Virus record (IMG/VR): IMGVR_UViG_3300030107_002332
DNA length: 64,000 nucleotides
Source of the DNA: a virus
Strand: one strand, 5' to 3'
The position numbers and the translations under genes were made by a program. Shown piece by piece: positions 23,654 through 47,888 of the stretch. The stretch's first letter is position 1. Each line of letters begins with the position of its first letter. Under the pieces are notes generated by a model. The model searched no databases. It worked only from the letters and a program-made list of their open reading frames with translations, and was not told the origin of the DNA.

Positions 23654-24295
23654 TCATGGATTTGGTAGTTTGCATGCTTTAGCGGACGCTTTGTCATCTG
23701 GCACAACCCAGAAGTTCCCTGATAGCGTCACTCTTTCATGGTCACTATTGTTGGGTGTGACGTAGTGAGGATAGAATGATGGGAATATAACTAAACTCCC
23801 TTGTCTTATCTTAGGTTCAATAGCAAATCCTGTAGGTAAATTAAATACATCTACAAGACCGCATGATTTATATAATGAATGAGAATTATTATAGAACTTA
23901 AAGTTACTCTTTTCTCCAGGAGTTAGAGTATGAAAGTATACCATGCTTAAGTTACATTGAGGAACTGCATGATCGTGATACTCTTGATGATCTCCTTTGT
24001 GATACTTATTAACCCATGCCTCTTGAGGTATGATTTCAATATCACATAATGGTTGTAACTCATCCATGAACTCATCAACTTGAGGTCTTAAACACTCCAA
24101 CCATTGTGTCCAAGGTGCTGACCCATTATTAGCATGTTGGAATGATGTTTGTACATTACAATTCCATCCAACTGCATCACTAAAGTTATCATCATTAGAA
24201 ATGAAAGGTTTAAATAACTCTTCAATTCTTTTTTGATATTCTTCATTCACATCTCCCACATAATACCATGCAGGAGCGAACATTTCAACACTCAT
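23654..24295 (-). CDS. 2OG-Fe(II) oxygenase (TIGR02466-like)
   Basis: WVNKYHKGDHQEYHDH, LSMVYF, GSLVIFPSFYPHYVTPN...RVTLSGN (HxH/D...H...R). Confidence 0.85.
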   Translation of the reverse strand: MSVEMFAPAWYYVGDVNEEYQKRIEELFKPFISNDDNFSDAVGWNCNVQTSFQHANNGSAPWTQWLECLRPQVDEFMDELQPLCDIEIIPQEAWVNKYHKGDHQEYHDHAVPQCNLSMVYFHTLTPGEKSNFKFYNNSHSLYKSCGLVDVFNLPTGFAIEPKIRQGSLVIFPSFYPHYVTPNNSDHERVTLSGNFWVVPDDKASAKACKLPNP

Positions 24296-25286: not shown

Positions 25287-25315
25287 AGTATAACACATTA
25301 TTTTTGTATTGTCTA
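25287..25315 (-). promoter_or_regulatory. Sigma70-like promoter
   Basis: TAGACA-17 nt-TATACT; a GTGACAC half-box lies at 25322-25328. Confidence 0.55.
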
Positions 25316-25834
25316 TCCTATGTGACACTTTGGATCGTGCACATAGTTGAAGTTGATAACCATCCTAAACGGTTGATCGGTACATGTTGTGCCTGTATGC
25401 TTCATTCTATTATCAAATACTACAAATCTATTCTGTACTGACTCAACTATTGTACCATCCTCAAATTTAGTATATCCATTATTAGTATTCAAATAGAATA
25501 CTGCTGTCTTAATATAATCTAAGTGTACACCATCCTGTATATCATTATGAAATCCATGCTCTATTATATTCTCCGTAGGCATGTTAAGATTTGCTTTAAT
25601 TTTAATTAGTGCTACTGGTTGTATCTTCTGAAAGAATGGAAACAATAGTTCTAGGGTATCCATTGATAAGAAATGTCTCTCGTAAAATACATGTGATAAT
25701 TGTCTATTAGTAAGATAATTGTCCTCAGTATCATCAAGAACCTTAGTCATATTCCATTTAAACTCATGGTGCTTCATGTATGAGAATAGTTTCTGGAATA
25801 TCTCATCAGGTAAGAAGTTATCGTATATCTTCAT
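25313..25834 (-). CDS. 2OG-Fe(II) oxygenase-like protein, cassette copy B
   Basis: MKIYDNFL..., HGFHND, TAVFYLNTNNGYTKFEDG, KHTGTTC...RMVINFN; ATGA overlap with the U32 gene. Confidence 0.8.
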   Translation of the reverse strand: MKIYDNFLPDEIFQKLFSYMKHHEFKWNMTKVLDDTEDNYLTNRQLSHVFYERHFLSMDTLELLFPFFQKIQPVALIKIKANLNMPTENIIEHGFHNDIQDGVHLDYIKTAVFYLNTNNGYTKFEDGTIVESVQNRFVVFDNRMKHTGTTCTDQPFRMVINFNYVHDPKCHIG

Positions 25835-27522
25835 TTCTTCAGTAATAATATATAAAGACCATTCCACCATGAAGAATCATCTTCTGGTTTGTTAGTTAAT
25901 AGTTTACGTTCAAAGATTACATTAAGTTTCATAATACGAATGAACTCATCTACAGACTCAATAACATTAGGCATATTAGCATCATCAATGATAAGAATAA
26001 ACTCATCTTTACAGAACTGGTAAACATGTTTAAGATTAATATATTGTGCTTGAGGATCGTGATCTGCATCATAGAATATAACATTAACTTCCTCTGGTAA
26101 TGCTATGTTCTGTATATCCTCCTCAATTAATTTATAATCATATCTCTTATCAGGATACCAAGGTGGTTCCAATAATACTGCTTTAGGGTTCTGATACCCT
26201 TTAAAGTTTAAATCATCCCTGTTAGGATATGTTGGTTGTTTATAGTTATCAACTGCATATCCCTTAACATTATTATTCTGTAATGCTGAATAGAATGTAC
26301 CACCAGCATAACATCCAAGTTCTAAGTATACTGTATCAGATAATGAACAGATATTATTTAAGAAGTGTTTAGTTATATTTGATGTAAGTGATTCTATTGC
26401 AACTCCTGTATAGTTACTATCTAATCTCTCTGCCTTGTCTATTGACTCTAATATATGAGGTATTTTAGGATTAACTTCTATATCACCTTTACCATGTTTG
26501 TATACTGTATCACAGTAATTACACTTCCAACAGTTAAACTTACATGTCTTTATCTTATCTCTCCATACATCAATAGGTCTCTCTTTAATATCAACAACAT
26601 CAATATATTCTCTGAAATCAGAGAACAAATACTCTTCATTATTTGCCCATCTATCAATAATATCCATAGTCTCTTTAAGACGTAATGGTGCTTCTCTTCC
26701 ATGCATTTTAAATACATCAATTACATCTAAGAACTCAATCCAATCTTCTTTCCAAGGTGGTAGATTTGCTGCCTTAAGTGATGCTGCCCCATCAAGTGCA
26801 TCCCATTTACTACAACTAACTCTGCTAATCCTACTGTTAAAGTATTGAGGATCATCAGCATCTCTAGTATTATTATAGTGATAATGTTCTGGCATGATAG
26901 GACAATTACCCCAACAACCCTCATTAGTTAATAATGATAGTTTAATGGGATATCCCTGTTCAGCACAGTATTCTTTCGCCTCTTTGATTTCATTTAATCT
27001 ATCCCTATCTCTCATCAAGTCTCTATCTAGGTTTATATAATGGAAACCTGCTCTTGCAAGTTCAACTATCTCATTAGGTCTAGTAACTTCTCTTAGTATA
27101 GTATTCTTAATGTATAATTCAGGATATTGTTTCTGTATCTCTCCAGTTAATACCCATGATGTATGAGGTAGAGTAACAATCTTAATGCCAGCATTATATA
27201 ATGATTCAAAGTTATGAATCCATGTTTCTAAATTCTTTTGATCTGGTCTAACATATAGATTATTAAATGTTGCTGATAATGGTATACCTGATTCATTAGA
27301 TAACCATAATGCCATCTCAATGACTTGGAACTCCATGTCTTGAGTATAAAATACGTCACCCATTGCATCCTGTGTAAAGGGTGGCATCCTTGTAGTAAAA
27401 TATAAATCATATATTAGATCCTTATTTCTTATTAAGAACTGTAGATACTCATTCTTAATAAAATCTGGATCTAATTTAGGATTAATAGGAACTGAAAATA
27501 TTTTATTCTTCAACTGCATCAC
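25831..27522 (-). CDS. U32-family (Fe-S) domain fused to a class I SAM methyltransferase, copy B
   Basis: LLTNEGCWGNCPIMPEHY, SRVSC, VFKMHGR, CKFNCWKCNYC; C-terminal YLELGCYAGGT, IFYDADH, LIIDD. Confidence 0.75.
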   Translation of the reverse strand: MMQLKNKIFSVPINPKLDPDFIKNEYLQFLIRNKDLIYDLYFTTRMPPFTQDAMGDVFYTQDMEFQVIEMALWLSNESGIPLSATFNNLYVRPDQKNLETWIHNFESLYNAGIKIVTLPHTSWVLTGEIQKQYPELYIKNTILREVTRPNEIVELARAGFHYINLDRDLMRDRDRLNEIKEAKEYCAEQGYPIKLSLLTNEGCWGNCPIMPEHYHYNNTRDADDPQYFNSRISRVSCSKWDALDGAASLKAANLPPWKEDWIEFLDVIDVFKMHGREAPLRLKETMDIIDRWANNEEYLFSDFREYIDVVDIKERPIDVWRDKIKTCKFNCWKCNYCDTVYKHGKGDIEVNPKIPHILESIDKAERLDSNYTGVAIESLTSNITKHFLNNICSLSDTVYLELGCYAGGTFYSALQNNNVKGYAVDNYKQPTYPNRDDLNFKGYQNPKAVLLEPPWYPDKRYDYKLIEEDIQNIALPEEVNVIFYDADHDPQAQYINLKHVYQFCKDEFILIIDDANMPNVIESVDEFIRIMKLNVIFERKLLTNKPEDDSSWWNGLYILLLKK

Positions 27523-28261
27523 TAATCATCTTGCGTGATGGCATACCCTCTTCCAAGAAACTAATCTCTTGTTCTGCTTTTAGTCTCATTCTTTCCATAC
27601 CTGATTTAATACTACCAGCATACTTTAATGCTATATCAATAGTTTTAGATTGATCTTCTTCAGGCATCATCAAGATAGAATCTATATTACCAACATTAAT
27701 AGTACCATAACCAATAAGATCAACAGCAGATTGCTTTGCCATTCTTGCAACCCAATACTTATGTTCTTCTTCCTTATCTAATACCATATATGATGCAACT
27801 TCCTGTTCATCATCACATTGTTCTTTAATCCAATCTAAAAAGTATCTCAATTCCATTTCAGATTGAGTCAATCGTTTAACATATTCCTTTCTATCAATTT
27901 GCTTATCGTTTAACTCAACATATAATAATCTTGCATCAAAATCAGTTTTACCTGGTATATCTCCCTCTTTAAATCCTAACTTCTCTAACTCATGTACTTT
28001 CTTATCTATCTCAATATCTGCACGTTGTATCTCAATGTGCATCTTATTGATACCATGATTTCTTGTTGCTACTTCTAATAATGCTTGTCTTACTGCTCTA
28101 TACTTAGTAGCATGTGATCCTGCTACAAAGTTAGTACATTGAAATTCTGTTTGAGGAAATGGAGTTACATTGGCGTTCTTTCTAATGAACGTATCAAATT
28201 CATCAAAGGAAACTTGGGGTGACCCGTCCTGCATTGTATGTTCGGTATCCATCTGAGTCAT
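27503..28261 (-). CDS. Coiled-coil protein, cassette copy B
   Basis: QTEFQ..FV.GSH.T.YR..RQA..E and EEEHKYWVARMAKQSAVDL are shared with 33507..34451. Confidence 0.75.
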   Translation of the reverse strand: MTQMDTEHTMQDGSPQVSFDEFDTFIRKNANVTPFPQTEFQCTNFVAGSHATKYRAVRQALLEVATRNHGINKMHIEIQRADIEIDKKVHELEKLGFKEGDIPGKTDFDARLLYVELNDKQIDRKEYVKRLTQSEMELRYFLDWIKEQCDDEQEVASYMVLDKEEEHKYWVARMAKQSAVDLIGYGTINVGNIDSILMMPEEDQSKTIDIALKYAGSIKSGMERMRLKAEQEISFLEEGMPSRKMISDAVEE

Positions 28262-28766
28262 ATTTAGATAATGCTAATGCTTGAGTTCTTGGTAACTCAT
28301 CACCAAGATAGTCCTCATATATTATATTGATATCTTCCATTGTACTGCAATTATCAATAGATGTCAATAAGGCACTGTTATATGTAGCATGTGAATCACC
28401 AAGTTTACTGATACCATACTCAACTAATTTCTTAGCGACTTTCTTCATTAATGATACACATGTTGCTCTATCTTCATCACTAATTTCTGTTTTAATCTTC
28501 TGTGAATTACCATTACCATCATCAGTCCACTCACTTGTATGTGTCCTTACTTCTGCCCATAATTGTCCACCTTTAATTGCTTCATTCTCAGATATCTTAT
28601 CTAATGTCCAACCATTCATATACTCATCTATAGTTTCTTGTGTTACACCACAGATTGCATATTTAATTTTATTATTAACATACATCAATCTACTACCTCT
28701 TACTTCAACAGGTAGATCTTCAACATCATGTATGAAGAATATTAAATTGGGATCGTATAATGCCAT
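28203..28766 (-). CDS. Putative fibre-assembly-associated protein, cassette copy B
   Basis: WAEVR..SE....G...KIK.EI and CSTMEDINIIYEDYLG are shared with 34393..35187. Confidence 0.65.
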   Translation of the reverse strand: MALYDPNLIFFIHDVEDLPVEVRGSRLMYVNNKIKYAICGVTQETIDEYMNGWTLDKISENEAIKGGQLWAEVRTHTSEWTDDGNGNSQKIKTEISDEDRATCVSLMKKVAKKLVEYGISKLGDSHATYNSALLTSIDNCSTMEDINIIYEDYLGDELPRTQALALSKYDSDGYRTYNAGRVTPSFL

Positions 28767-29773
28767 TAGTATGAGGGGGGTGTAATTCCGTAAGAAGAGT
28801 TATTAAATGAGAAAGCAGAAGCATTGCCAGCACTGGACATTCCATTGTGTCCTTTAGGTTCCATACCTCCACCACCTGAACTATATGTATCACTTGTAGT
28901 AGAGAACTTGTATGAATTATTATTCTGTGAACCGTTATAATGTCCTAAACAATATCCTTTAAAGTTACCTTGCTGATAATTCTCTTCACCTGAGTTCTGT
29001 ACGTTGAATGTAGATATATTAGCACCAGTATCATCATTACATTTTGCTAAACCCGTAACACAGTTACCACCCGTCTTCATATAGAAATGACCCATCCAAC
29101 TACCACATGCTTTACCCCATCCGTTAGTTCCTGGTGAATTACTCCATGTTGACCATGACTCATTTGCCCATGTCATATATTGAGCAGTACCACCTGTCTT
29201 CATGTATCCTCTTAATCTTCCTTGTGTCCCTGCTGTATAGTCACCACCACTACCAAATCCATTAGTAGTAGCATTAGAATCATTCTTCATATTAGTTCTA
29301 TCAGTGGTGCTATTACCACCTCCACTAATATAGATATGAGCACCCATGTAATGATAATCAATCATACATCCCATGTCATTCCTACTAACATTCATTCCAG
29401 ATTGATTACCTCTGTTTGATTCATTGCTCATTTGCATTGACCAAACTCTGTTAGACCATCCAGAGAATGAATTATCAGTACCATAGCAATACATGTGAAG
29501 ATCACTAAATGCACCATCAATATATGATCCAGCATCATTCATCTTGTCACCAAGATTAGTTGATGTATCATTACTATGTTGTGTCCTATTTACATTTCTC
29601 CAAGGAGCAGCATTTTTATATCCTCCAGCAACGAACCCATGCGTACATATCCTTGATCTCTCCCAAGGTGTAGCAGTAGGTCCATGTTCACTACCTTGTG
29701 ATCTACTATGCTTTGCTCTACCAGAGGTTACAAATGGTCCTTGTGCAGTAGCACTTGCCGTTAGTCCTGACAT
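28766..29773 (-). CDS. Gly/Ser-rich Kelch-like beta-propeller virion protein, copy B
   Basis: THGFVAGGYKNAAPWRNVNR, GYCLGHYNGSQNNNSYK, EPKGHNGMSSA are nearly identical to motifs in 35190..36581. Confidence 0.7.
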   Translation of the reverse strand: MSGLTASATAQGPFVTSGRAKHSRSQGSEHGPTATPWERSRICTHGFVAGGYKNAAPWRNVNRTQHSNDTSTNLGDKMNDAGSYIDGAFSDLHMYCYGTDNSFSGWSNRVWSMQMSNESNRGNQSGMNVSRNDMGCMIDYHYMGAHIYISGGGNSTTDRTNMKNDSNATTNGFGSGGDYTAGTQGRLRGYMKTGGTAQYMTWANESWSTWSNSPGTNGWGKACGSWMGHFYMKTGGNCVTGLAKCNDDTGANISTFNVQNSGEENYQQGNFKGYCLGHYNGSQNNNSYKFSTTSDTYSSGGGGMEPKGHNGMSSAGNASAFSFNNSSYGITPPSY

Positions 29774-29786
29774 TCAAGTTCCCTCC

Positions 29787-30323
29787 TTATGTGTAGAAGT
29801 TCTGGTTAGCATAAATTCGGAAGTCATTATTACCGATCTTCATTATAGTATATGTGTATACATCAACAGAGTTAGTATGTCCTGAGTTAGGAGTACCAAA
29901 TCCACCTAACCATTTTGGTGTCTTACCACTACCATCTATTTGCCATCCATTATTATAATATGCTGTACTACCTTGCTGAACATATAGTACAAATGTAAGA
30001 GACTGATCTGTACTCATTTCACTATTCAATGTAACTGAAGAACTACCTCTAAAGTTCACTGTCCAGTTACCACCAGCATTACCAGTATAATGATATATTT
30101 GTGCAGTCTGAAAATCTAAATTAATAGTTCCTGATAAAGCACTACTTGAGTTTACTATTGTCTCTTTACCTCCACCACCTCCTGCTGGTGCTGCCCACGC
30201 TAAAACTCCAGCACCATTTGTGGTAAGCACATCATTGGCATTACCTTGTACATTTGGATAGGTATTAGTTCCTGCAATGAGACTGGTGCTTACTGTTGCA
30301 GTACCTACTGTAAGTGCTGACAT
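29787..30323 (-). CDS. Short tail-fibre-like protein (178 aa)
   Basis: QGNANDVLTTNGAGVLAW fibre repeat and a C-terminal beta domain (INLDF...NWTVNFRG...DVYTYTIMK). Confidence 0.7.
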   Translation of the reverse strand: MSALTVGTATVSTSLIAGTNTYPNVQGNANDVLTTNGAGVLAWAAPAGGGGGKETIVNSSSALSGTINLDFQTAQIYHYTGNAGGNWTVNFRGSSSVTLNSEMSTDQSLTFVLYVQQGSTAYYNNGWQIDGSGKTPKWLGGFGTPNSGHTNSVDVYTYTIMKIGNNDFRIYANQNFYT

Positions 30324-30347
30324 TTATTCTATACTATTTCTCTCAGT

Positions 30348-30355
30348 TATTTATA
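30348..30355 (-). promoter_or_regulatory. T4-type late promoter TATAAATA
   Basis: Exact TATAAATA on the minus strand, 25 nt upstream of 30323. Confidence 0.75.
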
Positions 30356-31376
30356 TAATCAATGTGAAGAACCCATACGTTATTAAACATGCACACAATC
30401 CTCCTAATACTTTATAATATTTCTTGATAGGTGTACCAAAATACTGTTGACCAATCATTAAACACTTATGTGCTGGTGATAATAGATAACCAGAATACTC
30501 TGTAGTTAAGAACCATACAAGATATTGTGGTCCAAATATAGCAACTAACGCTGAAGTCATACCAGCATACTTACCACTACTACCCATAATATATGCTGCT
30601 ACTGCTGCTACAATACTAACAGGTATAATCATAGTAGTATCTGCACTCTTAAGATACTCCATCACTGGTGCATGTATCTGTTTAACTACACCACCTAATG
30701 CCAATACTACTGTTGCAATGATAGCAAACTTACCATCCAAATATTTACCCCACTTCCAATCTTTACATATAATACTATAATAACATGCCATAGCAGCAAA
30801 CCAAGGGAAGAAGAATATAGCACCTGCTTTACCTACACATAATAAGAACCATAGTGTAGCAATAAATGGTGCCCATCCTCTTAATGCTCTCTTCCAATTA
30901 AAATCACTAATATTACTCATGTCAGGAACAACACTTTGAGGATCTACCTTAGTAAAAATATACCACCATGTATATGCTAAACATATACACAATGGTACAA
31001 TAGTATATCCTAAAAATGTAGTATAACTTATACCCATGACTGCCATAGGTAGTGCCACAGTCTTTTCAAGTGGACTCCACCAATAGTAATGATGAGTAGA
31101 AAGATAATCAATTATACCAAACTCACTTCTCTTTCTCTTATTTTCTGGTGCTATAGCATCTAATAATGGTGCTGATAGTGCTACTCTACCAGGTATAGGT
31201 AGGACTCCACCAAATATAGATGTAATGATTATCATCACACGATTATCTTTTACATATCTCTTTGCTAATGAATATACATCATCCAATACATGATATTGAC
31301 GAATAAATCCACCCAATATCATAATACCGAAAATGTAACCCATGTAGAGTTCATTCTTAAGGATCGCTGATAACAT
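30351..31376 (-). CDS. Multi-pass membrane protein, DUF401 / ion-transporter superfamily-like
   Basis: Roughly 9-10 hydrophobic segments; GGVLPIPGRVALSAP, THHYYWWSPL and YSGYLLSPAHKCL...YFG resemble DUF401 motifs. Confidence 0.7.
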   Translation of the reverse strand: MLSAILKNELYMGYIFGIMILGGFIRQYHVLDDVYSLAKRYVKDNRVMIIITSIFGGVLPIPGRVALSAPLLDAIAPENKRKRSEFGIIDYLSTHHYYWWSPLEKTVALPMAVMGISYTTFLGYTIVPLCICLAYTWWYIFTKVDPQSVVPDMSNISDFNWKRALRGWAPFIATLWFLLCVGKAGAIFFFPWFAAMACYYSIICKDWKWGKYLDGKFAIIATVVLALGGVVKQIHAPVMEYLKSADTTMIIPVSIVAAVAAYIMGSSGKYAGMTSALVAIFGPQYLVWFLTTEYSGYLLSPAHKCLMIGQQYFGTPIKKYYKVLGGLCACLITYGFFTLII

Positions 31377-31875
31377 AGTTTAAATTTAATACCATTCTAT
31401 ATGTCTGATCGCTGCATGATACAGACGTATGCTTTATATAGTTTGGAAATGTGACCAATCTATTTGCAACACTGTGTATTTTAACACCATCCTCAAATTC
31501 TGTCCACCCATTATTAGTATTCATATAAAATATGGACACCATAACTGATGGATTTGTAGTGTTTGTTATGTCAACATGTAGATTATGTTTTAATTGAGTA
31601 TCATGTTGTAGAGTAATATTTCCTTTAATTCTCAACACAGCAAGAGGATCTATCTTCTTGACTAAAGGAAATAATATATTACACCCATCCATTGCCATAT
31701 TATTTTCATAAAAGTAATGAACGAATTGCATATTACGCAACTTATTACCTTCATGCTCTTCTGCATCAATACTTGATGGATACCAAGGGAATGATGGCAT
31801 GAGTAACTCATTAGATAATGTATTAAATGTACCAGTATCTAAAAAGTTATCAGTAATTTTATAATAGTCTTGCAC
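31357..31875 (-). CDS. 2OG-Fe(II) oxygenase-like protein, cassette copy A
   Basis: ITDNFL, NLHVD, SIFYMNTNNGWTEFEDG, KHTSVSC...RMVLNLN; paralogue of 25313..25834. Confidence 0.8.
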   Translation of the reverse strand: MQDYYKITDNFLDTGTFNTLSNELLMPSFPWYPSSIDAEEHEGNKLRNMQFVHYFYENNMAMDGCNILFPLVKKIDPLAVLRIKGNITLQHDTQLKHNLHVDITNTTNPSVMVSIFYMNTNNGWTEFEDGVKIHSVANRLVTFPNYIKHTSVSCSDQTYRMVLNLNYVISDP

Positions 31876-33628
31876 CTGCTCCCTCTTGAGTCTTATCTAC
31901 AACAACTATATACATACCATTCCACCAATCATTAGCATCTTCTAATTCTTTTGTTAATAACTTCCTTTCAAATACTACAGTCTTATCTTTTAAAAACTTC
32001 TCAGTAGTTTCAATCACACCTTCAAAGTTAGCATCATCAACAATTAAAACATAACTATCTGCTGCTTGACTATGAATCTTCTCTAAGTTAGTGACCATCC
32101 TTGAGTCTTGATTATCAGCATCATAGAATACTACATTAGGTGGGAACTGAGGATTATACTCTACTTCATGTATAGGTCTAACTGATAATCCAACTGAATT
32201 ATCCTCACTCATCCATTTCTCTGTATTATCAACAAATGTTTGTATAGGATTCTCTACCTCAAACTGTGAATGTAAATCTTTACGTCTTGGTTTAACTACA
32301 CCTGCTGAGTAATCATCAATAGCATATGCTCTGACATCTTTATTACCCATTAGTGCTGCAAACAATGTGCTACCCATGTAACATCCAGCATCAACATATA
32401 CTGTACCAGGTACACTACACATATTATTAAGGAAGTGTCTAACTTTAGATGATGATAACCCTAAGACATCATACCCTTCAGGTTTGAAATTAGAATTATT
32501 ATCAACAGCACCATCTATTGCCTTGATAACTCTGTCTATAAGTGGATTCAAAACTCTCTTCTCCTTCTTCATGGATGATTCTACCACAGACTCACAGTAA
32601 TTGCAATCCCAACAATCGAACTTGCATGTCTTGATTTTGTCTCGCCATATATTTATAGGTGCATCCTTAAGATGTAAATCCTTAAAGAATGGATCAAAAT
32701 CATTATATAATAATTCCTCATCTGCATCCCACTTAGCAATAATATCCATTGATTCTTTCATTCTTATGGCATTATCTCTACCATGAAATTTGAATACATC
32801 AATACCTAAGTCAAAGAACTCTTCCCAATCTGCTTTCCAAGGTGGTAAGTTAGATCCCTTAAGTGCACTAGCAGGATCATATACATCCCAACGACTACAT
32901 GATACTCTACTAATTTCACTATAAAAGAACTGAGGATCTCTTCCTTCTCTTGTTGCATTAATATGATAATGCTCTGGCATAATAGGACAACCACCCCAAC
33001 ATCCCTCATTAACTAATAATGAGATCTTAATTGGTTTACCTTTATCTGCACAATATTCCTTTGCTTTTTTAATACGCAACAATAGTTCTTTGTCACGCAT
33101 TAGATCACGATCTAAATTGACATAATGAAACCCAGACGTAGCAAGAGATACTATCTCATTAGGTCTTGCAACCTCTCTAAGTATAGTATTCTTAATGTAC
33201 AGTTCTGGGAACTCTTTTTGTATTTGTCCTGTAGATACCCATGAAGTATGAGGTAACGTAACAGTCTTTACACCAATATTATATAATGGTGTAAAATTCT
33301 CAATCCAAATATCTAAATTCTTCTGGTCAGGTCTTACCCATAGACTATTAAATGTTGCTGACAATGGTATGCCAGTCTCTTGCATTATATAAAATGAATT
33401 CTTAGCAGCATCCTTCGCATCACTTTCTGTACGAAAGGTGTCACCCATTGCATCATTCATAAATGGTGGCATACGACAAGTAAAATACAAGTCGTATATT
33501 AAATGCTTATGCTTTTTTAGAAATGGAATCAGTGATTCTTCTATCAACTCTGGAGGAAGTTTCGGGTTGATCGGAAGACTGAAGATTCCTTTCTTTTCTA
33601 TCTGCGAGGTTACTGGTTGCATAATCAC
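31859..33628 (-). CDS. U32-family (Fe-S) domain fused to a class I SAM methyltransferase, copy A
   Basis: LLVNEGCWGGCPIMPEHY, SRVSC, VFKFHGR, CKFDCWDCNYC; YVDAGCYMGST, VFYDADN, LIVDD. Confidence 0.75.
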   Translation of the reverse strand: MIMQPVTSQIEKKGIFSLPINPKLPPELIEESLIPFLKKHKHLIYDLYFTCRMPPFMNDAMGDTFRTESDAKDAAKNSFYIMQETGIPLSATFNSLWVRPDQKNLDIWIENFTPLYNIGVKTVTLPHTSWVSTGQIQKEFPELYIKNTILREVARPNEIVSLATSGFHYVNLDRDLMRDKELLLRIKKAKEYCADKGKPIKISLLVNEGCWGGCPIMPEHYHINATREGRDPQFFYSEISRVSCSRWDVYDPASALKGSNLPPWKADWEEFFDLGIDVFKFHGRDNAIRMKESMDIIAKWDADEELLYNDFDPFFKDLHLKDAPINIWRDKIKTCKFDCWDCNYCESVVESSMKKEKRVLNPLIDRVIKAIDGAVDNNSNFKPEGYDVLGLSSSKVRHFLNNMCSVPGTVYVDAGCYMGSTLFAALMGNKDVRAYAIDDYSAGVVKPRRKDLHSQFEVENPIQTFVDNTEKWMSEDNSVGLSVRPIHEVEYNPQFPPNVVFYDADNQDSRMVTNLEKIHSQAADSYVLIVDDANFEGVIETTEKFLKDKTVVFERKLLTKELEDANDWWNGMYIVVVDKTQEGAGARLL

Positions 33629-34451
33629 TTAAAACACCTGCGGTGTCAAACATTTGTGGTGGTTGATCTTTCAACATTCTATCAACTTTATCTTCTGCTG
33701 CTTCTTTAATTTTACCAACAGATTTATTCATTGCTGTAGAATATGTCATAGCGAGATCAGTCACTGCTGCTTGATCTTCGGGATTCATCATCAACATACT
33801 ATCTAGGTTACCTGCCTGAATACGTCCTGTAGTAAGAAGATCCGTTGCGGATTGTTTTGCCATACGAGCAATCCAATACTTATGCTCTTCTTCTTCCTGA
33901 AGATTTTTATCAGAAAGATACTTAGTAACCTCACTTGCAGGTAGATCACCTACCTTTTCTTTGATGATACTTAATATACCTGATAGTTCTGATTGACATT
34001 GACGTATTTTATTCTTCCAACTCTGTAAGTCAAGATATAATAGTTCTAATTCATATTTCTTATCTTCTTTCCAATACTCATCCTTCTCTTCATTCATTTC
34101 TGCTTCTACACGTTTGCAATCATTAATAGATCTTTTATACTGTATAATTACTCGTTGTAATGATTGATAACGTGACTGTACTTCCATACATGCCTGTCTA
34201 ATCTGACGGTATGGTGTGACTTGTGAATTAACTACGAACCATCTATTCTGAAACTCAGTCTGTTCAAAGAAAGCAGTATCAGTCCAGTCTATTATACCTC
34301 TATCAAAATCATCAACACCTTTCCAATCCAATGATGGATCAGAAAAGGAGTCGAGATCCTCCATAATATTATCGATTGTATATCTAGGATCCTTAGAAAC
34401 GTATTCCGTACTTAAATGGTTTTTCTCGTTCGACGAGTCCTGTTTCTTCAT
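33507..34451 (-). CDS. Coiled-coil protein, cassette copy A
   Basis: QTEFQNRWFVVNSQVTPYRQIRQA, EEEEHKYWIARMAKQSATDL; start may be internal. Confidence 0.75.
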   Translation of the reverse strand: MKKQDSSNEKNHLSTEYVSKDPRYTIDNIMEDLDSFSDPSLDWKGVDDFDRGIIDWTDTAFFEQTEFQNRWFVVNSQVTPYRQIRQACMEVQSRYQSLQRVIIQYKRSINDCKRVEAEMNEEKDEYWKEDKKYELELLYLDLQSWKNKIRQCQSELSGILSIIKEKVGDLPASEVTKYLSDKNLQEEEEHKYWIARMAKQSATDLLTTGRIQAGNLDSMLMMNPEDQAAVTDLAMTYSTAMNKSVGKIKEAAEDKVDRMLKDQPPQMFDTAGVLSDYATSNLADRKERNLQSSDQPETSSRVDRRITDSISKKA

Positions 34452-35187
34452 TACGAATTCCTCTTCCTGTATCTAATGTTTGTTGGTCAGTCATTTGCTC
34501 ACCATAGTAATCTTCAAGGAATATATTAATCTCTGCAACTGTAGTACATGCTTTAAGTGCACGAATTACTTTTTGTTCAGCAACAGCAAGATCATATAAT
34601 TTTTCTTTCCAACTAACGTGGGATGTTACTATTTTAGTAGCAAACTCCTCTGTTGTCAATCCCCTCAGTTCTGCAAGTCGATTAATCAACTTAGGTTCAA
34701 ACTTATCATCATCTAAAACTGCTTTAGATTCTGCAAGTTGATCTGGGAAGACTGCCTGTTCAAGGTAAGAGTATTTAGTCTTTAATACGTTGAGTCTTTT
34801 CTCAAAAATTTCTTGTGTCTTTAGGGTTATTACGTCCTGCATAAATGGTACGACATACTTACCAAATATACTTTTATCTTCTATCTCTACCTTTTCTTTT
34901 AAAGTAGTTCCTTCATCATTAACACCATATTCAGATCTCTTAAATCTTGTCTCACCCCAATACCTTGCCCCAAAATCTGCTTCCTTATAGGTATAACGAA
35001 GATGTGTAATATCATTAGGAATATAGTCCCAGAACTCATCATCCAGCACATAATATTCTATCCCCATGTTGCCACCAAGAAGAGTACCCCATGTGTCTAC
35101 TTGAGGAAATTTCTCTACATCCAAGACTATCACATCAGAATATCCTGGATTCTCTCTGGTATTAGGACTTGTTAAAACGCTAGACAT
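34393..35187 (-). CDS. Putative tail-fibre assembly protein, cassette copy A
   Basis: YSYLEQAVFPDQLAESKA...LAELRGLTTEEFATKIV...ACTTVAEIN resembles phage fibre-assembly proteins; directly follows the fibre gene. Confidence 0.6.
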   Translation of the reverse strand: MSSVLTSPNTRENPGYSDVIVLDVEKFPQVDTWGTLLGGNMGIEYYVLDDEFWDYIPNDITHLRYTYKEADFGARYWGETRFKRSEYGVNDEGTTLKEKVEIEDKSIFGKYVVPFMQDVITLKTQEIFEKRLNVLKTKYSYLEQAVFPDQLAESKAVLDDDKFEPKLINRLAELRGLTTEEFATKIVTSHVSWKEKLYDLAVAEQKVIRALKACTTVAEINIFLEDYYGEQMTDQQTLDTGRGIRNEETGLVEREKPFKYGIRF

Positions 35188-35189
35188 TA

Positions 35190-36581
35190 TTAGTAGTTCG
35201 GAATGTTAGTACCATAATCATATGATGCTGCCTGTGATGTTACAGAACTTGCAGATGCACAGTGAGCAGATGACATACCACCATGACCTTTCGGTTCAGT
35301 AGTTCCACCCAAGTTATTGTATTGGTCAGTATTATAGTTCACCTTGTAAGTGTTATTGTTCTGTGAACCATTATAGTTACCTAACATATAACCTTTTCTC
35401 ATACCCATCTGATAATTCTCCTCTCCAGTCCTACCAAAGTCAAGACCTCTTGTTGAAATACCAGTAGTATCATCATTTTTCTGCATACCGTTCTGGTTGT
35501 TATTACCAGTACCAACATACATGTGACCTATCATAGTAGACATGATCTTCTTCCAACCATCTCCACCAGGAGCATGTGCCCAAGAACACCAAGTCTCTGT
35601 ATTCCACCAGAAACCTTGTCTTGACCATGTATCTCCTCTCTTCTTCCATCCTTTCAATCTACCATGACCACCCCAAGTTGGGTCATCACCACCATCATAG
35701 TGATCGGGTGGGAATCCTGAAGTTCTCATAACCTCAGTCTTCAGGTTCATAACATCAGTTCTTGAGTTACCACCACCATATAGATATGAATTACCACCAG
35801 CAAATACATGGTCTTGGAATGAACCCATAGAGTTCCTATTCACTGTCATATCCCATGAACCTTGGTGTGTTCTACCAGATTCAGTTGCCATATTATAGGC
35901 AGAAGTATAGTTAGATGATGCTCTGAAACTGTTGTCGAATGAATGACAGAAGTGTGTAATATCATTCCATGATCCAGAGAAATATCCTCCAGATCTATCA
36001 ATGATATCACCAATATTTGTTGTTACGTCAGTAGAGTGAACAGTTCTGTTTACAGTTCTCCATGCAGAAGAGTTCTTATATCCTCCAGCAACATAACCAT
36101 GTGTCCAGATTCTTGCACTTGACCAATCATTATCACCAGCATCAAATGCCCAATATGTATTAGTACCATCTGATTTTAGTGTAGCACCAACAGAATAATC
36201 TGTGCTATATCTATCAGCAGACTGGTCTGGAAATCCTCCTCCACCTGAACCTGCAATCGGTCCCCATTCAACTACGTTTGTACTTGCATTAAGTGAGTAA
36301 CCTTCAAAGGTTCTATCTGTACTATTGTATCTGAATAGACCTTCTACTGCGGTTGCTGGTCTTTGGGCGGTTGTACCTACAGGTACTTTGACTGCATCAG
36401 TAGCATTAATATCTAAACCATAAGACGGAGATGAATCGTTAATACCTATACGATTGTTACCTGCATCAATATAAAGTGTTCCAGAGTCAAAACTAAAGTT
36501 GCCACTAGATTCCAAGTCAATTCGAGCAGTTCCACCACCACCTGCTAGAGATACAATTTTATCGACATTTAACTGTGACAT
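35190..36581 (-). CDS. Tail-fibre / receptor-binding protein with Kelch-like propeller, copy A
   Basis: N-terminal RIGIN.SSP and VPVGTTAQRP...FRYNS fibre module; C-terminal THGYVAGGYKN propeller. Confidence 0.75.
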   Translation of the reverse strand: MSQLNVDKIVSLAGGGGTARIDLESSGNFSFDSGTLYIDAGNNRIGINDSSPSYGLDINATDAVKVPVGTTAQRPATAVEGLFRYNSTDRTFEGYSLNASTNVVEWGPIAGSGGGGFPDQSADRYSTDYSVGATLKSDGTNTYWAFDAGDNDWSSARIWTHGYVAGGYKNSSAWRTVNRTVHSTDVTTNIGDIIDRSGGYFSGSWNDITHFCHSFDNSFRASSNYTSAYNMATESGRTHQGSWDMTVNRNSMGSFQDHVFAGGNSYLYGGGNSRTDVMNLKTEVMRTSGFPPDHYDGGDDPTWGGHGRLKGWKKRGDTWSRQGFWWNTETWCSWAHAPGGDGWKKIMSTMIGHMYVGTGNNNQNGMQKNDDTTGISTRGLDFGRTGEENYQMGMRKGYMLGNYNGSQNNNTYKVNYNTDQYNNLGGTTEPKGHGGMSSAHCASASSVTSQAASYDYGTNIPNY

Positions 36582-36603: not shown

Positions 36604-36611
36604 TATTTATA
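36604..36611 (-). promoter_or_regulatory. T4-type late promoter TATAAATA
   Basis: Exact match 23 nt upstream of 36581; would drive cassette copy A. Confidence 0.75.
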
Positions 36612-36614
36612 GTC

Positions 36615-37622
36615 TTACCTAACCCAGATTTCTGCTCTGATAGTTCTATTCACACCTGTAGTGTTTTGACAACACCAAATGTGGTCACCAGCAGAGGAAT
36701 TTGCCCTATCAACGGCAATACCACCAGAAACGTCGTTAGATCCTTGGTCACCTTCATTGTTCCAACCAAATCCCCAACGTACTCGGTTACTACCATTACC
36801 AGTATAGTTAAAACCATACCATTGGTATCCACCCTGAGATGAGAATCCAGATCCTTGGAACATACTTTCTCCACGAGGATTACCAGATAATTGTCCATTA
36901 CTCTGGAATCTACTAAGACAAGTAGAACTTTGTCCTGTTACATACCAACTCCATCCATTACCATATCCTCCTGCTTGTCCTCCATTATTGAGGTCAGGGA
37001 AGATTGCCATGAAATTTTCTGCTTCAAAGTAATTGAATACATCATACTTTGCATCAGCATCATTTCTTGACATATCAGTCTCATTATATGTATTAGTTGA
37101 TGTCCAATAATTTGTATCATAATCAAATCTACTACCACGTGTACACTTCCATGCTAACATCCATCCACCACCTTGGAAACCTGGATCTAATGCACAGTAA
37201 GTTTGTTTAACACCAATAGAGGGTAAGTTAATATAATATGCACCATTAGTAGTATTACCAGAGTCACGTAGTTGTTTTGCTGAAGTAGCAGGATTTGCTT
37301 CTGATCCTAATGGTTGTGTATTTTGTCCAAATCCTGCAGGTTTACTAAAACCTTCAAGAATATTAATCCATCCTGAACCATTATAACATTCTAAGTAGTT
37401 AGTTTCAATATTTACCCTTATCATTCCTGCTTGAGGACTTGACGGGCGTTGTGCTGTTGTCCCGTATGGTACAGAAAATGCAGATTGATTATGCATATCA
37501 TAAGTACCAGCAACAATTATATTGTTACTCGAATCCATCTCAACTGTAAAGTTGTTATCAGATCCTGCTTCTATTTGATTGACGACAAGTTTACTCATAG
37601 TTAGTGATAGAAAAACAACCAA
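36615..37622 (-). CDS. Tail-fibre subunit with fibrinogen-like C-terminal domain
   Basis: VPYGTTAQRP...GMIRVN, then NGAYYI...QTYCALD...GGGWMLAWK. Likely start is MSKLVV at 37598. Confidence 0.75.
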   Translation of the reverse strand: MVVFLSLTMSKLVVNQIEAGSDNNFTVEMDSSNNIIVAGTYDMHNQSAFSVPYGTTAQRPSSPQAGMIRVNIETNYLECYNGSGWINILEGFSKPAGFGQNTQPLGSEANPATSAKQLRDSGNTTNGAYYINLPSIGVKQTYCALDPGFQGGGWMLAWKCTRGSRFDYDTNYWTSTNTYNETDMSRNDADAKYDVFNYFEAENFMAIFPDLNNGGQAGGYGNGWSWYVTGQSSTCLSRFQSNGQLSGNPRGESMFQGSGFSSQGGYQWYGFNYTGNGSNRVRWGFGWNNEGDQGSNDVSGGIAVDRANSSAGDHIWCCQNTTGVNRTIRAEIWVR

Positions 37623-38635
37623 TACATGTGATTTTGACCACCAGGATTATTAATACCCCATGATCCAGACCAGTTTGGTTCTGGGAAATTTTGTTCAGAG
37701 TAGTTATTATTAGTATTACCTACCCAAGCATGGTGCTCAACGTTACATCCATTAGATGAACATCCAAGAGCATTAATCATACTGAAAGTATAGTTTTCAC
37801 AATTAGCGGGTGATAAATGCCAGACATTATTAGGATCTAACTCACCACGAGAAGATGGTCTATATCTATTGTCTGAGGCACTTGCACTTCCTTTTAAGAA
37901 GGTCATGCCACCTATTTCAGTACCACCAATATTACCATGATTTGCTAAACTAATATGAGATTCAAACATGTTTTTCATGTTACCACCTCTATTAGTAAAG
38001 CACCCATTTATGTATGCTACTTCAGTAGATTGATCGTATGGTGTACCAGAAGTAGACCACCCTTGCATAATCAATACATCATTAGCACCATTCCATGCAT
38101 GATAGTGTCTGGACTTCCAATCAGTTTGCATCCAACTGTTTATTGATCCAAATGTAGTTGTATTAGACCAGTTACCATACCAACTATCACTACCACCAGT
38201 ATAAGTTCCGTGATTAGTATCATCTGCTATTGATGCTACTCCTACCCAATACTTACTATTAGTATCCTTGAAAACATATGCCTGTTCTGCTCCTCCACCA
38301 TCTAAATTAATATAAAATATTCCATTACCTGGGTTTGCAGATGCAATATTCGCCATTGTTGTAAATGGAGATCCTGCTGATCCATCTTCAGATCCAAATT
38401 CTTTCCAAGTACTACCTGTATATACTTCTACCGAAAGAGTACTAGTGTTCCACCTCATGTATCCTGCTTGAGGACTACCTGGACGTTGACCTGTTGTTCC
38501 TGATGGTAGTCTAACAGCACCATACCCATCATGGTAAACATTGCCGTTAACCTGGAGTGTATGACCAGAATTAACAGTTACTTGTCCAATTGTTTGAGCA
38601 ATCCCACCAAGACCACTTACGACAATTTTACTCAT
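37601..38635 (-). CDS. Tail-fibre subunit with lectin/fibrinogen-like C-terminal domain
   Basis: LPSGTTGQRP..PQAGYMRWN module; GIFYINLDGGG..QAYV...YWVGVA. Confidence 0.75.
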   Translation of the reverse strand: MSKIVVSGLGGIAQTIGQVTVNSGHTLQVNGNVYHDGYGAVRLPSGTTGQRPGSPQAGYMRWNTSTLSVEVYTGSTWKEFGSEDGSAGSPFTTMANIASANPGNGIFYINLDGGGAEQAYVFKDTNSKYWVGVASIADDTNHGTYTGGSDSWYGNWSNTTTFGSINSWMQTDWKSRHYHAWNGANDVLIMQGWSTSGTPYDQSTEVAYINGCFTNRGGNMKNMFESHISLANHGNIGGTEIGGMTFLKGSASASDNRYRPSSRGELDPNNVWHLSPANCENYTFSMINALGCSSNGCNVEHHAWVGNTNNNYSEQNFPEPNWSGSWGINNPGGQNHMYWLFFYH

Positions 38636-38657
38636 GAGATGAATACTTTTCTTTTAT

Positions 38658-39560
38658 TTATTTAACCCAGAGATATCCGTTAGAAGCACCTAAACTATCT
38701 TCACGGAAACCGCAGTTATTACCTGACTCTGGATGCCGACCCCAAGCAAAATATGTACCACCTGAAGTATGGTGGTCACCAAATCCTCTCGTACCAGTGT
38801 TCGGACCTCTATCGCTGATACCACCTTCATAAGTAAGTGTTATCCTTGTTCTTTCATTCTGATTAGATGCACTACTTAGTAGGTCAACAGTAGCATTACT
38901 ATCAATAAATACATTCTTATTAAATCCTGTTGCTTCCATCCAGTATCGTGTAGATCCAGTATAAGTTGATTCACCAACTAAAGCATTAATCCAACTATCT
39001 GACATTTTAGTAGTTGAACTATTAGTAAGTGTTGGACCTTGAGTACCAGTGATACGGACACCTCCTTGATTCATATGATCTTGACATGTTGCAGTACGAA
39101 CTGTTGCAACAAGAACCCATCCACCACTATTTCTTGAATTATCAACATACATTTGATATGCACCAGAATTTCCTGGACTAATCCAGTAAGTACCAGATGG
39201 TTGTCCAGATTCTAATATTTCCATACCAGACTTAGCAGCAGCACCCTGACTGGCACCAGGTAATGTTCCTGTAGGATATCCAGTTCCATCCTGCCAAACA
39301 CCATTATATACCATCTCCAGTTTATCTGTAGATGTATTAAATCTTAACTGTCCAATCTGAGGTTGTCTTCTCTTACCGTAACTTATCTCTCTATTTCTAA
39401 AATCTAATGGTGCACCATTTGGTAATGGAAGATAACTTTGTCCTGTAATTACAAGACTACTATCACCTTTAAACGCAAGATCAGTATCTTCTGGTACTGT
39501 TACAGTAAAATTAGGTGATAAACCTTCAATAAGTCCAACGTTAATCTTACCTGCTGCCAT
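38658..39560 (-). CDS. Tail-fibre subunit with fibrinogen-like C-terminal domain
   Basis: LPLPNG...PQIGQLRFNTSTDKLE module; SGTYWISP...QMYVDNSRNSGGWVLVA. Confidence 0.75.
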   Translation of the reverse strand: MAAGKINVGLIEGLSPNFTVTVPEDTDLAFKGDSSLVITGQSYLPLPNGAPLDFRNREISYGKRRQPQIGQLRFNTSTDKLEMVYNGVWQDGTGYPTGTLPGASQGAAAKSGMEILESGQPSGTYWISPGNSGAYQMYVDNSRNSGGWVLVATVRTATCQDHMNQGGVRITGTQGPTLTNSSTTKMSDSWINALVGESTYTGSTRYWMEATGFNKNVFIDSNATVDLLSSASNQNERTRITLTYEGGISDRGPNTGTRGFGDHHTSGGTYFAWGRHPESGNNCGFREDSLGASNGYLWVK

Positions 39561-39982
39561 TATCTAATACTCCATGATGCTCCGTTTTCTATCGTCACAG
39601 TAAAACCATTATTAATAGATACGGGACCAGCAGTCATTCCGTTGGTATACTTAGCATCTCCATTAGCAGTTGGTCCTATCGTAATATTTTCTACAATCGT
39701 TGGTGCATTAGTTCTTATAATACTATCAGTTCCTACAGCAGGTCCACCACCAGATATTGCTGCCCATCCAGCACTACCAGTACCATCATCTGCCTTGTAT
39801 ATCTCAGCAGCATCAGTATCACTGTTAAATCTTATCGTTCCTACACTAACACCAGTTGGTCTTTGTGCTGTAGTACCTGCTGGTACTCTCATAACACTAT
39901 TAGTGTTTAAGAAACTTAGAGTTGTTATAATTGCTTCTGTTGCAGTGGAAATCTGATTTCCACTAATTCTTGAAATTGCCAT
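39560..39982 (-). CDS. Short tail-fibre adaptor protein (140 aa)
   Basis: VPAGTTAQRP..VSVGTIRFNSD; C-terminal IRTN...ENITI...NGMTAGPVSINNGFTVTIENGASWSI. Confidence 0.75.
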   Translation of the reverse strand: MAISRISGNQISTATEAIITTLSFLNTNSVMRVPAGTTAQRPTGVSVGTIRFNSDTDAAEIYKADDGTGSAGWAAISGGGPAVGTDSIIRTNAPTIVENITIGPTANGDAKYTNGMTAGPVSINNGFTVTIENGASWSIR

Positions 39983-45481: not shown

Positions 45482-46804
45482 TTAGAATCCAGCGTAAAAG
45501 AATTGTTGTTGTCTTGTTAACCCAGTAAGGTTGTTTGCTCCAATACCAGCACCAAATGTAACATCTTCAAGAGTTACGTTTTCAGTAGACAATAGTGTAG
45601 CATCAGCATCTGGGAACTTAATAGTTCGAGGACCAGTGATCCCTTCAGCAGAAAGAACAACTGATGCAGCGACATTAGTTGAATCTTTCAACGACATGTT
45701 ATACATTGATTTATAGTATAACCCTTGGTCGCCTCTTTCAGTAACTATTACGTTATGGTTACCAGATCTATTTAGGTTATTGGTTGGAGGAACCTGAAAA
45801 CTCTCATTAGATAATGTGTTCTGATTACTTACATCAAATGTAATCTTTTTAGTTACATCAGTTGTATCTGCAAGTTGCAATGCCTTGATACTTTTGTTAC
45901 TCATAATCTGAGTAGTATCTTCCATTACAACAGTACCACTCTGATCAGGCATTGTTATAATCCTGTTAGAGGTTACTGCATCAGTATTCCACTGAACAGA
46001 TGCTGTTGCAGACTCTGCGTTAGCAGCAAGTTTCAAATTAACGAAAGTCTTGCTTAATGCAGTTTGTTCTGCCTTAGTATCAAGTAAAGTAGATGATGTA
46101 GCAGTTGGTTCAGAAGTTGTAGTTACTGATCCAGCATCAGGTAAGAAATAAGAACGACGAGCACCTGAAGTAGTTGCCCAGTTAATCTGGAAAATTGCTT
46201 CTTCAGTCCCGTCAACGATAACAAAGTTATTCTCATTAATAAGAATAGTTTTGTTAGTCAATGTTTGTTGTGTATCAGCACCAACAAGTGTAGTACCGTT
46301 ACCAGAGGTAATAGCAGGTAATGTCATGATTCTGGTATTAGTACCAGTACCAACATTACTTACTTCAAATCTTGCTTTTGGTCCTTGTGCATCTTCCAAT
46401 ATGAAAGATCCATCTTCCATCAAGAATTGTCCCGTTACTTTAACAGCACCCGTACCTTTCGGTGCGAGAACAATATCAGTATTGGTTGCAACGTCATCTT
46501 GTGCAGTAATGTATAATGATGTGCTACTGTTACCGTTATCAATACGAGAACAATAGAAACCACCATCACCAAATGCGATACCCAATTGATCGTATGCTGT
46601 TTGATAGAAACCAGTGTCTCTGTCCAAATCAAAAGCTATACCTGGTGCTGCTTTTGTACCTTGCGATACTCCTCTAAACAACTGATTAACTTTTGCTTTT
46701 CTATTAGGAATCAATGGGTCAGACACCACAACAGGAAGAATCGCTTCTCCCGACAGGTTAGCGTCCGAAATCGTTTCCAGTTGTGAAATCTTCTTAGTTG
46801 CCAC
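45482..46804 (-). CDS. Tail-fibre-like structural protein (440 aa)
   Basis: MATKKISQL N-terminus, APGIAFDLDRDTGFYQ, DIVLAPKGTGAV and QTLTNKTI fibre repeats. Confidence 0.78.
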   Translation of the reverse strand: MATKKISQLETISDANLSGEAILPVVVSDPLIPNRKAKVNQLFRGVSQGTKAAPGIAFDLDRDTGFYQTAYDQLGIAFGDGGFYCSRIDNGNSSTSLYITAQDDVATNTDIVLAPKGTGAVKVTGQFLMEDGSFILEDAQGPKARFEVSNVGTGTNTRIMTLPAITSGNGTTLVGADTQQTLTNKTILINENNFVIVDGTEEAIFQINWATTSGARRSYFLPDAGSVTTTSEPTATSSTLLDTKAEQTALSKTFVNLKLAANAESATASVQWNTDAVTSNRIITMPDQSGTVVMEDTTQIMSNKSIKALQLADTTDVTKKITFDVSNQNTLSNESFQVPPTNNLNRSGNHNVIVTERGDQGLYYKSMYNMSLKDSTNVAASVVLSAEGITGPRTIKFPDADATLLSTENVTLEDVTFGAGIGANNLTGLTRQQQFFYAGF

Positions 46805-47074: not shown

Positions 47075-47226
47075 AATCTTTTTAATTGTCTTACATCAGT
47101 AACACCAAACTGTGCCTTACATACATTCTCTGCATCTTCTCTAAGATTAGATACAGACAAAAATTCTACCTTCTGTAACCTATTAGAAGGTAATAAAATG
47201 TATGCTTCCCATCTAATAGGTTTCAT
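47065..47226 (-). CDS. Hypothetical protein (53 aa)
   Basis: Hand-translated MKPIRWEAYILLPSNRLQKVEFLSVSNLREDAENVCKAQFGVTDVRQLKRLWN; ATGA overlap with pcyA. Confidence 0.7.
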   Translation of the reverse strand: MKPIRWEAYILLPSNRLQKVEFLSVSNLREDAENVCKAQFGVTDVRQLKRLWN

Positions 47227-47888
47227 GGAGTACAGAATAGTATGTTGTTTATATAATTATTTGCCCAGTCTTTATCAAACCAATTAGAAAGAACTGCTAA
47301 TGTCTTAGGATTCTTTCTCTGTTGTACAGAGTATCTAATTTGGTCTGCCATCCTTTGTGCTGTTGTTAATGGTGATCCTTGTTGTGCAACCTTAACAGCA
47401 TCACAGTATATAATAAGGTATTCCATTAAAACATCAAGGAATTTTCTTTGTTCCTCAACCTGTCTTATACGTTGAAATTTCATATAAGGTGAAAATATAT
47501 CACCCCATTCTGGTAAAGGACGAGGTTCATTAAAATTAAATACATCACAAATAGGTTTTACCCTTTCATAGATGTAATTTGATCCACTAATAGGAGATAT
47601 ATCAACTATTGCAGCAGTAACCATTGACGGTGTAGCAATAATATCACATCCAAATATAGGAAGAACGTACTTAGGATCTGGAAAGTATACACAATGTAAT
47701 ACATCCAGTTTTCCTGCCTTAGCAACTTCTAAATGAATCTTGCGAAGACCAGTACATTTCCTCATCTCATTAGAAATGTAAAGATCCTCCTTAGTTAACT
47801 CAGGGAAGTCATTATCTAAACATTCTATATCAGGTAAGTCATTCCAAGAGGTGCGAATTACCTTTGCCAAATCATCAACAATAGTCAC
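47223..47888 (-). CDS. pcyA: Phycocyanobilin:ferredoxin oxidoreductase
   Basis: LRKIHLEVAK...LDVLHCVYFPDPKYVLPIFGCDII, AAIVDISP, RPLPEWGDIFS, QQRKNPKT are PcyA-type motifs. GTG start at 47888 preferred over the track TTG at 47936. Confidence 0.85.
   Translation of the reverse strand: MTIVDDLAKVIRTSWNDLPDIECLDNDFPELTKEDLYISNEMRKCTGLRKIHLEVAKAGKLDVLHCVYFPDPKYVLPIFGCDIIATPSMVTAAIVDISPISGSNYIYERVKPICDVFNFNEPRPLPEWGDIFSPYMKFQRIRQVEEQRKFLDVLMEYLIIYCDAVKVAQQGSPLTTAQRMADQIRYSVQQRKNPKTLAVLSNWFDKDWANNYINNILFCTP

Follow-up and report, generated by a model that had tools for sequence, protein, structure and literature searches.

The 64,000-nucleotide window of viral DNA analysed here (IMG/VR record IMGVR_UViG_3300030107_002332) is part of a T4-like marine cyanophage whose nearest isolates are Synechococcus and Prochlorococcus myoviruses. 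Flanked by baseplate, tail tube and fibre genes, it carries two related cassettes, copies A and B, each of which encodes, in the direction of transcription, a Kelch propeller (PROP), a helper protein (ASM), a coiled-coil protein (CC), a U32-like barrel joined to a methyltransferase (U32-MT) and a 2-oxoglutarate (2OG)-Fe(II) oxygenase (OX). The core of this unit is four genes (propeller, CC, ASM and U32, the last usually with an O-methyltransferase), because the oxygenase is optional; the oxygenase and a membrane protein gene (MEM) are accessory. We tentatively propose that the core enzyme hydroxylates and then O-methylates, late in infection, an aromatic group on the fibre-tip propeller itself.

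A four-gene core and its two copies

Gene neighbourhoods were counted over non-redundant viral U32 loci with enough flanking sequence, so that denominators vary (44, 48, 53 or 61). Propeller and CC genes accompany U32 in 53/53 loci and ASM in 49/53, which bears out the tight co-occurrence proposed in a preliminary description of this DNA, and a methyltransferase is fused or adjacent to U32 in 55 of 61. The same description took the unit to have five genes, and this does not hold: any 2OG oxygenase is found in 32/44 loci, the OX family lies directly downstream in only 12/44, and in phage P-HM2 the homologue (PHM2_041) is unlinked to the cassette and middle-expressed (PMC5082946). Nor does each propeller come with enzymes of its own, as had been suggested, since in 19 of 48 loci a single enzyme set is accompanied by two or three propellers. 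MEM stands next to U32 in 14/44 loci. Gene order differs among loci, and the hosts are as far apart as cyanobacteria and Ralstonia; the Ralstonia jumbo phages RP12 and RP31 carry a fibre fragment, a propeller, an ASM-like gene, CC, a U32 gene lacking the methyltransferase, and MEM. One clade has separate U32 and methyltransferase genes plus a radical S-adenosylmethionine (SAM) gene. U32 searches returned viral-type contexts only, and a scan of cellular-genome contigs with two short patterns, which could miss distant cellular relatives, found the phage-type cassette on just two short contigs of metagenome-assembled genomes (L104, L105), which we treat as viral contamination.

Both copies lie on the minus strand in colinear order, with all ten open reading frames (ORFs) placed as first described (Table 1), and each of four motifs quoted for them (THG.VAGGYKN, EEEHKYW.ARMAKQSA, NEGCWG.CPIMPEHY and NTNNG.T.FEDG) occurs in both. 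By pairwise BLASTP the A and B proteins are 52% identical for U32-MT (E 0), 44% for the propeller (E 4e-76), 41% for the oxygenase (E 2e-42), 35% for CC (E 2e-37) and about 32%, over two short stretches, for ASM (E 2e-4 and 8e-4). Two genes absent from the preliminary description separate the copies, the DUF401-like MEM and a fibre-adaptor gene (FIB). Copy B has an ASM without the helical insert of copy A and a propeller without the fibre stalk. Misassembly does not explain the tandem, because seven other contigs (L002, L004, L018, L020, L022, L025 and L039), of two sub-lineages, also carry two U32 genes; each of the 126 isolate records in which U32-MT is matched has one copy.

In a quick IQ-TREE phylogeny of U32 (SH-aLRT support only, midpoint root), copy A clusters with Syn33-like cassettes and copy B with the B copy of L025 and the single-U32 loci L088, L177, L182 and L325, each at SH-aLRT 99. 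The same groups are kept apart in the propeller and CC trees, and each clade holds single-copy relatives. A simple tandem duplication, as originally envisaged, does not fit this pattern. Because the copies fall in separate clades and B-type cassettes are found alone in other phages, the tandem is best read, from the sequences, as two old lineages juxtaposed by ancient duplication or later acquisition. The parts of the cassette do co-diverge, as had been claimed, in that their pairwise identities follow those of U32 (Spearman 0.67-0.70, to which shared ancestry contributes). With dN/dS of 0.04-0.29 against close relatives for all genes of both copies, each cassette is under purifying selection. 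Both copies are probably kept because neither helper and enzyme set suits the propeller of the other. The two receptor specificities once suggested for the A and B propellers are unsupported, because one enzyme set serves 2-3 propellers elsewhere and the pocket residues of A and B are identical.

Individual loci show further arrangements. A metagenome clade (L260:8988-13951 and L252) has three propellers, a radical SAM gene, split U32 and methyltransferase genes, a secreted outer-membrane-like protein and MEM, and at L281:9710-10588 a prepilin-type N-methylation protein occupies the slot of the secreted protein. At L244:9574-16883 the cassette is followed by a carbamoyltransferase, a Trp halogenase and several 2OG oxygenases. 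In S-ShM2 (L327:4487-12794) twelve genes, including petE and gnd, lie between CC and U32-MT.

The enzyme, the propeller and their expression

The U32-methyltransferase fusion named in the preliminary description was recovered by structural modelling, which found both a U32 fold and a class I O-methyltransferase fold. The AlphaFold model (pLDDT 84.5) is laid out as a barrel, a helical region with four Cys, and the methyltransferase. Among 48,161 chains the TIM barrel best matches the U32 protein Mk0906 (PDB 5d88; Z 15.1, rmsd 3.4, 215 aligned residues, 9% identity); the barrel fold is shared, while the function of Mk0906 is not transferable. The C-terminal domain matches class I O-methyltransferases at Z 15.5-16.8 (best 16.8), among them TrmR (5zw3, Z 15.5). 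Residues E208, C210, C214, H220, C244 and H282 are invariant in 70/70 diverse rows of the alignment, as is a second cluster, C335/C339/C342/C345 (Cx3Cx2Cx2C), in 70 diverse rows; the methyltransferase residues G415, G419, D438, D503, D531 and D532 are likewise invariant. PF13578 (Methyltransf_24-like) was found in 23/32 members (best E 1.5e-8), and the U32 family profile (PF01136) gave no Pfam match among the 32 members and none in NCBIfam. An Atlas feature match to a bacterial U32 plus methyltransferase cluster (0.80) is a lead only. PRMT5 and pyruvate kinase, returned by Foldseek for the two-domain model, were rejected as a coincidence of architecture (TM about 0.2). The copy A protein is about 66% identical to its Syn33 counterpart. 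Elsewhere, an 843-aa protein (P0364; L326:132-2663) fuses U32, methyltransferase and radical SAM domains.

The propeller, too, is as first identified: the copy B model (AlphaFold2, pLDDT 86) is a six-bladed Kelch propeller of six four-stranded blades with GG motifs, and it matches Kelch KLHL17 at Z 31.8 (rmsd 2.2, 269 aligned). The RP12 protein at the equivalent cassette position has a TM score of 0.71 to it. Across 56 propellers, Y52, Y84, G262-E263, Y279, Q283 and S314 are 93-98% conserved (the tyrosines in copy B numbering), and PROP-A and PROP-B do not differ at 12 conserved pocket positions. A further PROP-B pocket residue, K221, is kept in methyltransferase-bearing cassettes and absent from RP31-type and L109 propellers, where no methyltransferase was seen, although independent cases are few.

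Several observations tie these proteins to tail fibres. The propeller occurs as the C-terminal domain of fibre-like proteins of 1,300-2,800 aa, the longest being 2,832 aa, and the ASM helical domain matches fibre-adjacent proteins of PHROG 2618 (hhalign probability 98). The C-terminal domain of FIB terminates giant fibres upstream of other B-type propellers, and at L182 and L325 a giant fibre ending in the FIB domain precedes the B-type cassette. In RP31 the product of ORF140, the gene directly before the propeller gene, has been detected in virions (PMC5468394). We consider the propeller itself likely to be in the virion. CC pairs with Kelch proteins also in two loci without U32 (L112, L243), whose Kelch proteins lack the conserved motif set. 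U32-MT, ASM, CC and propeller profiles gave nothing significant against PDB sequences, and CC has no known relative by its PDB profile search or in the Atlas. Complex prediction for the U32 domain with CC scored 0.00, which is neither support nor contrary evidence.

Upstream of the cassettes lie a 1,320-aa tail fibre gene and then four small genes (window positions 36615-39982; 335, 344, 300 and 140 aa) that join the PROP-A N-terminal motif to differing C-terminal domains. We read them as a series of exchangeable fibre-tip-like proteins that follows the 1,320-aa fibre.

Late expression, part of the original proposal, is borne out for the P-HM2 orthologues PHM2_098-101, which are classed as 'Late' in both light and dark (PMC5082946 S2 Table). 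The accompanying claim of a late promoter before each copy stands in part: TATAAATA at 36604 lies ahead of cassette A, whereas the second one (30348-30355) precedes FIB and not the propeller. In the window TATAAATA is seen 5 times against 9.7 expected, i.e. without enrichment. Its position is conserved among relatives, with TAAATA close to the start in 18/19 adaptor genes and in 70/142 propeller genes (background 5.9%), in sets that include close relatives. Contigs of four RNA libraries span parts of both cassettes, with DNA carry-over possible and timing unreadable from them.

A proposed modification of the fibre tip and its alternatives

The block is transcribed late, as shown for its orthologues. 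In the scheme that we propose, the Kelch propeller would belong to the fibre tip, where its own stalk would anchor it in copy A and FIB in copy B, as fusions and gene position suggest, and CC and ASM would help to fold or attach it. By analogy with TrhP-TrmR and UbiUV, the putative Fe-S U32 domain would then hydroxylate an aromatic ring, for which prephenate may donate the oxygen, and the methyltransferase would O-methylate the new hydroxyl, adding +16 and then +14 Da. The last step is the weakest: the target may be the propeller, most likely its top-face tyrosines Y52, Y84 and Y279 (copy B). The fibre tip is favoured because of the strict propeller link, the late timing and the fibre fusions. 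We give this reading, late hydroxylation followed by O-methylation of an aromatic group on the propeller, somewhat less than an even chance of being correct.

A number of observations weigh against it. The substrates of characterised U32 proteins are RNA bases or quinone precursors, and none is a protein (PMC10990095, PMC6599085). An O2-independent hydroxylase would be odd in an oxygen-evolving host. The Glu/Cys spacing is unlike that of TrhP (E162, C170, C177), and the RP31-type clade has no methyltransferase, so that methylation is not universal. The conserved propeller residues are assigned to the top face, near blades 6, 1 and 2, by inference from Kelch topology and secondary structure. 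Virion proteomics of RP31, a 32-protein list of low coverage, found neither the propeller nor any of ORFs 135-139 (PMC5468394). The virion proteomes of S-SM1, Syn9 and S-PM2, phages that may not encode T4-GC351-354, give these families no structural flag and are uninformative here (PMC3037559).

A bolder form of the proposal is a widespread phage system in which a U32-type Fe-S enzyme acts on protein for the first time, turning conserved tyrosines of the fibre-tip propeller into catechol or methoxy groups. Such a tip might chelate iron or be adhesive, and in particular lineages radical SAM enzymes, halogenases and oxygenases would tailor it further. A system of this kind is conceivable, though we lean against it.

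Instead of modifying the propeller, the enzymes may synthesise or modify a small molecule or a metal cofactor destined for its pocket, for example a Tyr/Glu Fe(III) site or a methoxylated aromatic ligand, with DUF401 importing the metal or precursor and the tip serving as a cofactor-bearing adhesin or enzyme. The conserved polar pocket, unusual in a variable adhesin, would suit such a role. MEM adjoins U32 in several U32 clades, all 12 of the 12 isolate records with MEM come from phages that also carry U32, and a secreted outer-membrane-like protein precedes MEM in L260 and L252. Frequent neighbours (Trp halogenase, radical SAM, carbamoyltransferase and 2OG oxygenases) recall metabolite clusters (PMC2938197, PMC7824862). 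However, MEM is missing from most U32 loci, often has another location in cyanophage genomes and has been lost or exchanged in the close relatives of the window, and the core is without a scaffold-building enzyme; we consider a cofactor pathway unlikely.

It is also rather improbable that the four proteins act outside the virion, as a complex that modifies some target in the infected cell (tRNA or rRNA, like TrhP plus TrmR or RlhA; a quinone-like lipid; or a component of the envelope), the Kelch protein being the substrate adaptor. The known substrates of the U32 family would favour this, as would the presence of TrmR among the top methyltransferase matches, the classic adaptor role of Kelch domains and the absence of the propeller from the RP31 virion data. 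A close parallel would be TrhP or TrhP1-TrhP2 with TrmR, which in Bacillus subtilis convert tRNA U34 to ho5U and then mo5U (PMC6599085). Both systems couple a U32-type barrel to a class I O-methyltransferase. The cassette differs in being viral, late and fibre-linked, in its Cys spacing and extra four-Cys cluster, and in lacking the TrhP-type C-terminal beta domain that would stand between barrel and methyltransferase; there are zero tRNA genes in the window, and the context is one of fibre genes. The cassette thus resembles TrhP plus TrmR in domain logic and fails the tests of a tRNA pathway, and the late timing, the constant place among fibre genes and the fusion of the propeller to giant fibres further argue against a host target.

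More improbable is that the U32-like domain is an Fe-S- or Zn-dependent maturation factor for tip assembly (a protease, oxidoreductase or cross-linking enzyme), the methyltransferase acting separately. The absence of a Pfam or NCBIfam U32 match, the non-canonical Cx3C-x5-H-x23-C motif with the extra four-Cys cluster, and the existence of cassettes without a methyltransferase are compatible with it, but an O-methyltransferase fused or adjacent in 55/61 loci fits the generation of a hydroxyl. Protease activity of U32 proteins is, moreover, poorly established. Mere hitchhiking of the enzyme gene in a variable fibre island, functionally unlinked to the propeller, is very improbable: the oxygenase and MEM genes partly behave in this way and S-ShM2 has 12 genes between CC and U32, yet the 53/53 linkage persists through rearranged orders and unrelated phage groups.

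Accessory genes and relation to known systems

Table 1. Features of the two cassettes and of the genes between them, in transcription order.
Feature	Position in window	Strand	Basis
T4-type late promoter TATAAATA, ahead of cassette A	36604..36611	-	word match; positional conservation
PROP-A: fibre-type N-terminus of ~150 aa and six-bladed Kelch propeller; T4-GC351, PHROG 1417	35190..36581	-	fold from copy B model
ASM-A: putative chaperone-like helper; T4-GC352, PHROG 1604	34393..35187	-	profile match; hhalign
CC-A: coiled-coil protein; T4-GC353, PHROG 1409	33507..34451	-	profile match
U32-MT-A: U32-like TIM barrel, Cys cluster, class I O-methyltransferase; T4-GC354, PHROG 1458	31859..33628	-	model and alignment
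OX-A: 2OG-Fe(II) oxygenase-like, accessory; PHROG 274	31357..31875	-	homology; Pfam match on copy B
MEM: DUF401/TIGR00529-like membrane protein, accessory	30351..31376	-	profile match
Late promoter TATAAATA, ahead of cassette B, overlapping MEM stop	30348..30355	-	word match; positional conservation
FIB: 178-aa fibre-adaptor; PHROG 5906	29787..30323	-	profile match
PROP-B: stalk-less six-bladed Kelch propeller	28766..29773	-	AlphaFold2 model and fold search
ASM-B: shortened helper without helical insert; PHROG 1604	28203..28766	-	profile match
CC-B: coiled-coil protein	27503..28261	-	homology
U32-MT-B: every invariant Cys/His and the SAM-binding motifs kept	25831..27522	-	alignment
OX-B: 2OG-Fe(II) oxygenase-like; alternative ORF start 25870	25313..25834	-	Pfam match

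Both oxygenases keep an HVD/HND motif and a distal His, and OX-B matches the Pfam family 2OG-FeII_Oxy_3 at E 6e-4, under the curated cut-off. We discarded the 'endonuclease V' label of PHROG 274, which is probably a misannotation. The window has a third 2OG oxygenase-like gene, unrelated to these two (positions 23654-24295; TIGR02466-like, E 1e-8). It is placed 1 kb downstream of copy B and turns up again close to many cassettes. MEM scores 43.4 bits against PF04165 (cut-off 24) and far under the TIGR00529 equivalog cut-off, has the conserved motifs HHYYxWSPLEK and SPxHKC, and adjoins U32 also in Ralstonia phage RP31 and a freshwater clade. Its slot in close relatives holds a hydrophobic ORF of about 116 aa (L003:12290-12640; L022:12257-12615) or is empty (L018). 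MEM often stands alone, apart from the cassette, in cyanophage host-gene regions near talC, nrdAB, psbA and petE (L179, L193, L195, L212, L224). Elsewhere in the window, imperfect self-complementary stretches within coding sequence (27401-27487 and 46219-46256) are probably due to chance in AT-rich DNA, and a ferredoxin-dependent oxidoreductase-like host gene (47223-47936; PHROG 7278) lies amid tail genes.

Other U32 systems offer a partial likeness. UbiU-UbiV carry out prephenate-dependent, O2-independent hydroxylation of ubiquinone (PMC10990095), and with UbiU-UbiV and RlhA the cassette shares the U32 fold, conserved Cys that may bind an Fe-S cluster and, presumably, O-methylation after hydroxylation in the pathway. 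In contrast to these, it has a single U32 gene, no nearby ubiquinone pathway genes, an oxygen-rich host and, as partners, a Kelch protein and two helpers of no known kind. Among phages, a study of the dioxygenase/halogenase arrays of Syn9 also proposes that operons of hydroxylases act on tail-collar or collagen-like proteins encoded with them (PMC2938197). The Syn9 arrays and the tailoring clusters of jumbo cyanophages (PMC7824862) use the same types of accessory enzyme, but neither description mentions U32, and the four core genes fall outside both. The core corresponds to gene families already catalogued in cyanomyoviruses as T4-GC351-354, hypothetical or 'sericin-like' only (Sullivan 2010, PMC3037559), and identical to PHROG 1417/1604/1409/1458. 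Literature searches of incomplete coverage (U32 with phage, tail fibre or hydroxylation; Kelch with virion modification) found no paper describing the block. Specific to the window is the side-by-side pair of lineages, both maintained; it also contributes the observation of the conserved pocket.

If the fibre-tip reading is correct, the U32 family would gain a new class of substrate, and abundant marine and freshwater phages would chemically mature the tips that contact their hosts, with implications for host range and for iron at the surface of virions. The block is present in the cultured phages Syn33, P-HM2, P-SSM4, S-RIM2 and RP31 and is therefore testable. The tandem is the smaller point, its A and B pair being useful for cross-complementation as a natural test of enzyme-substrate matching.

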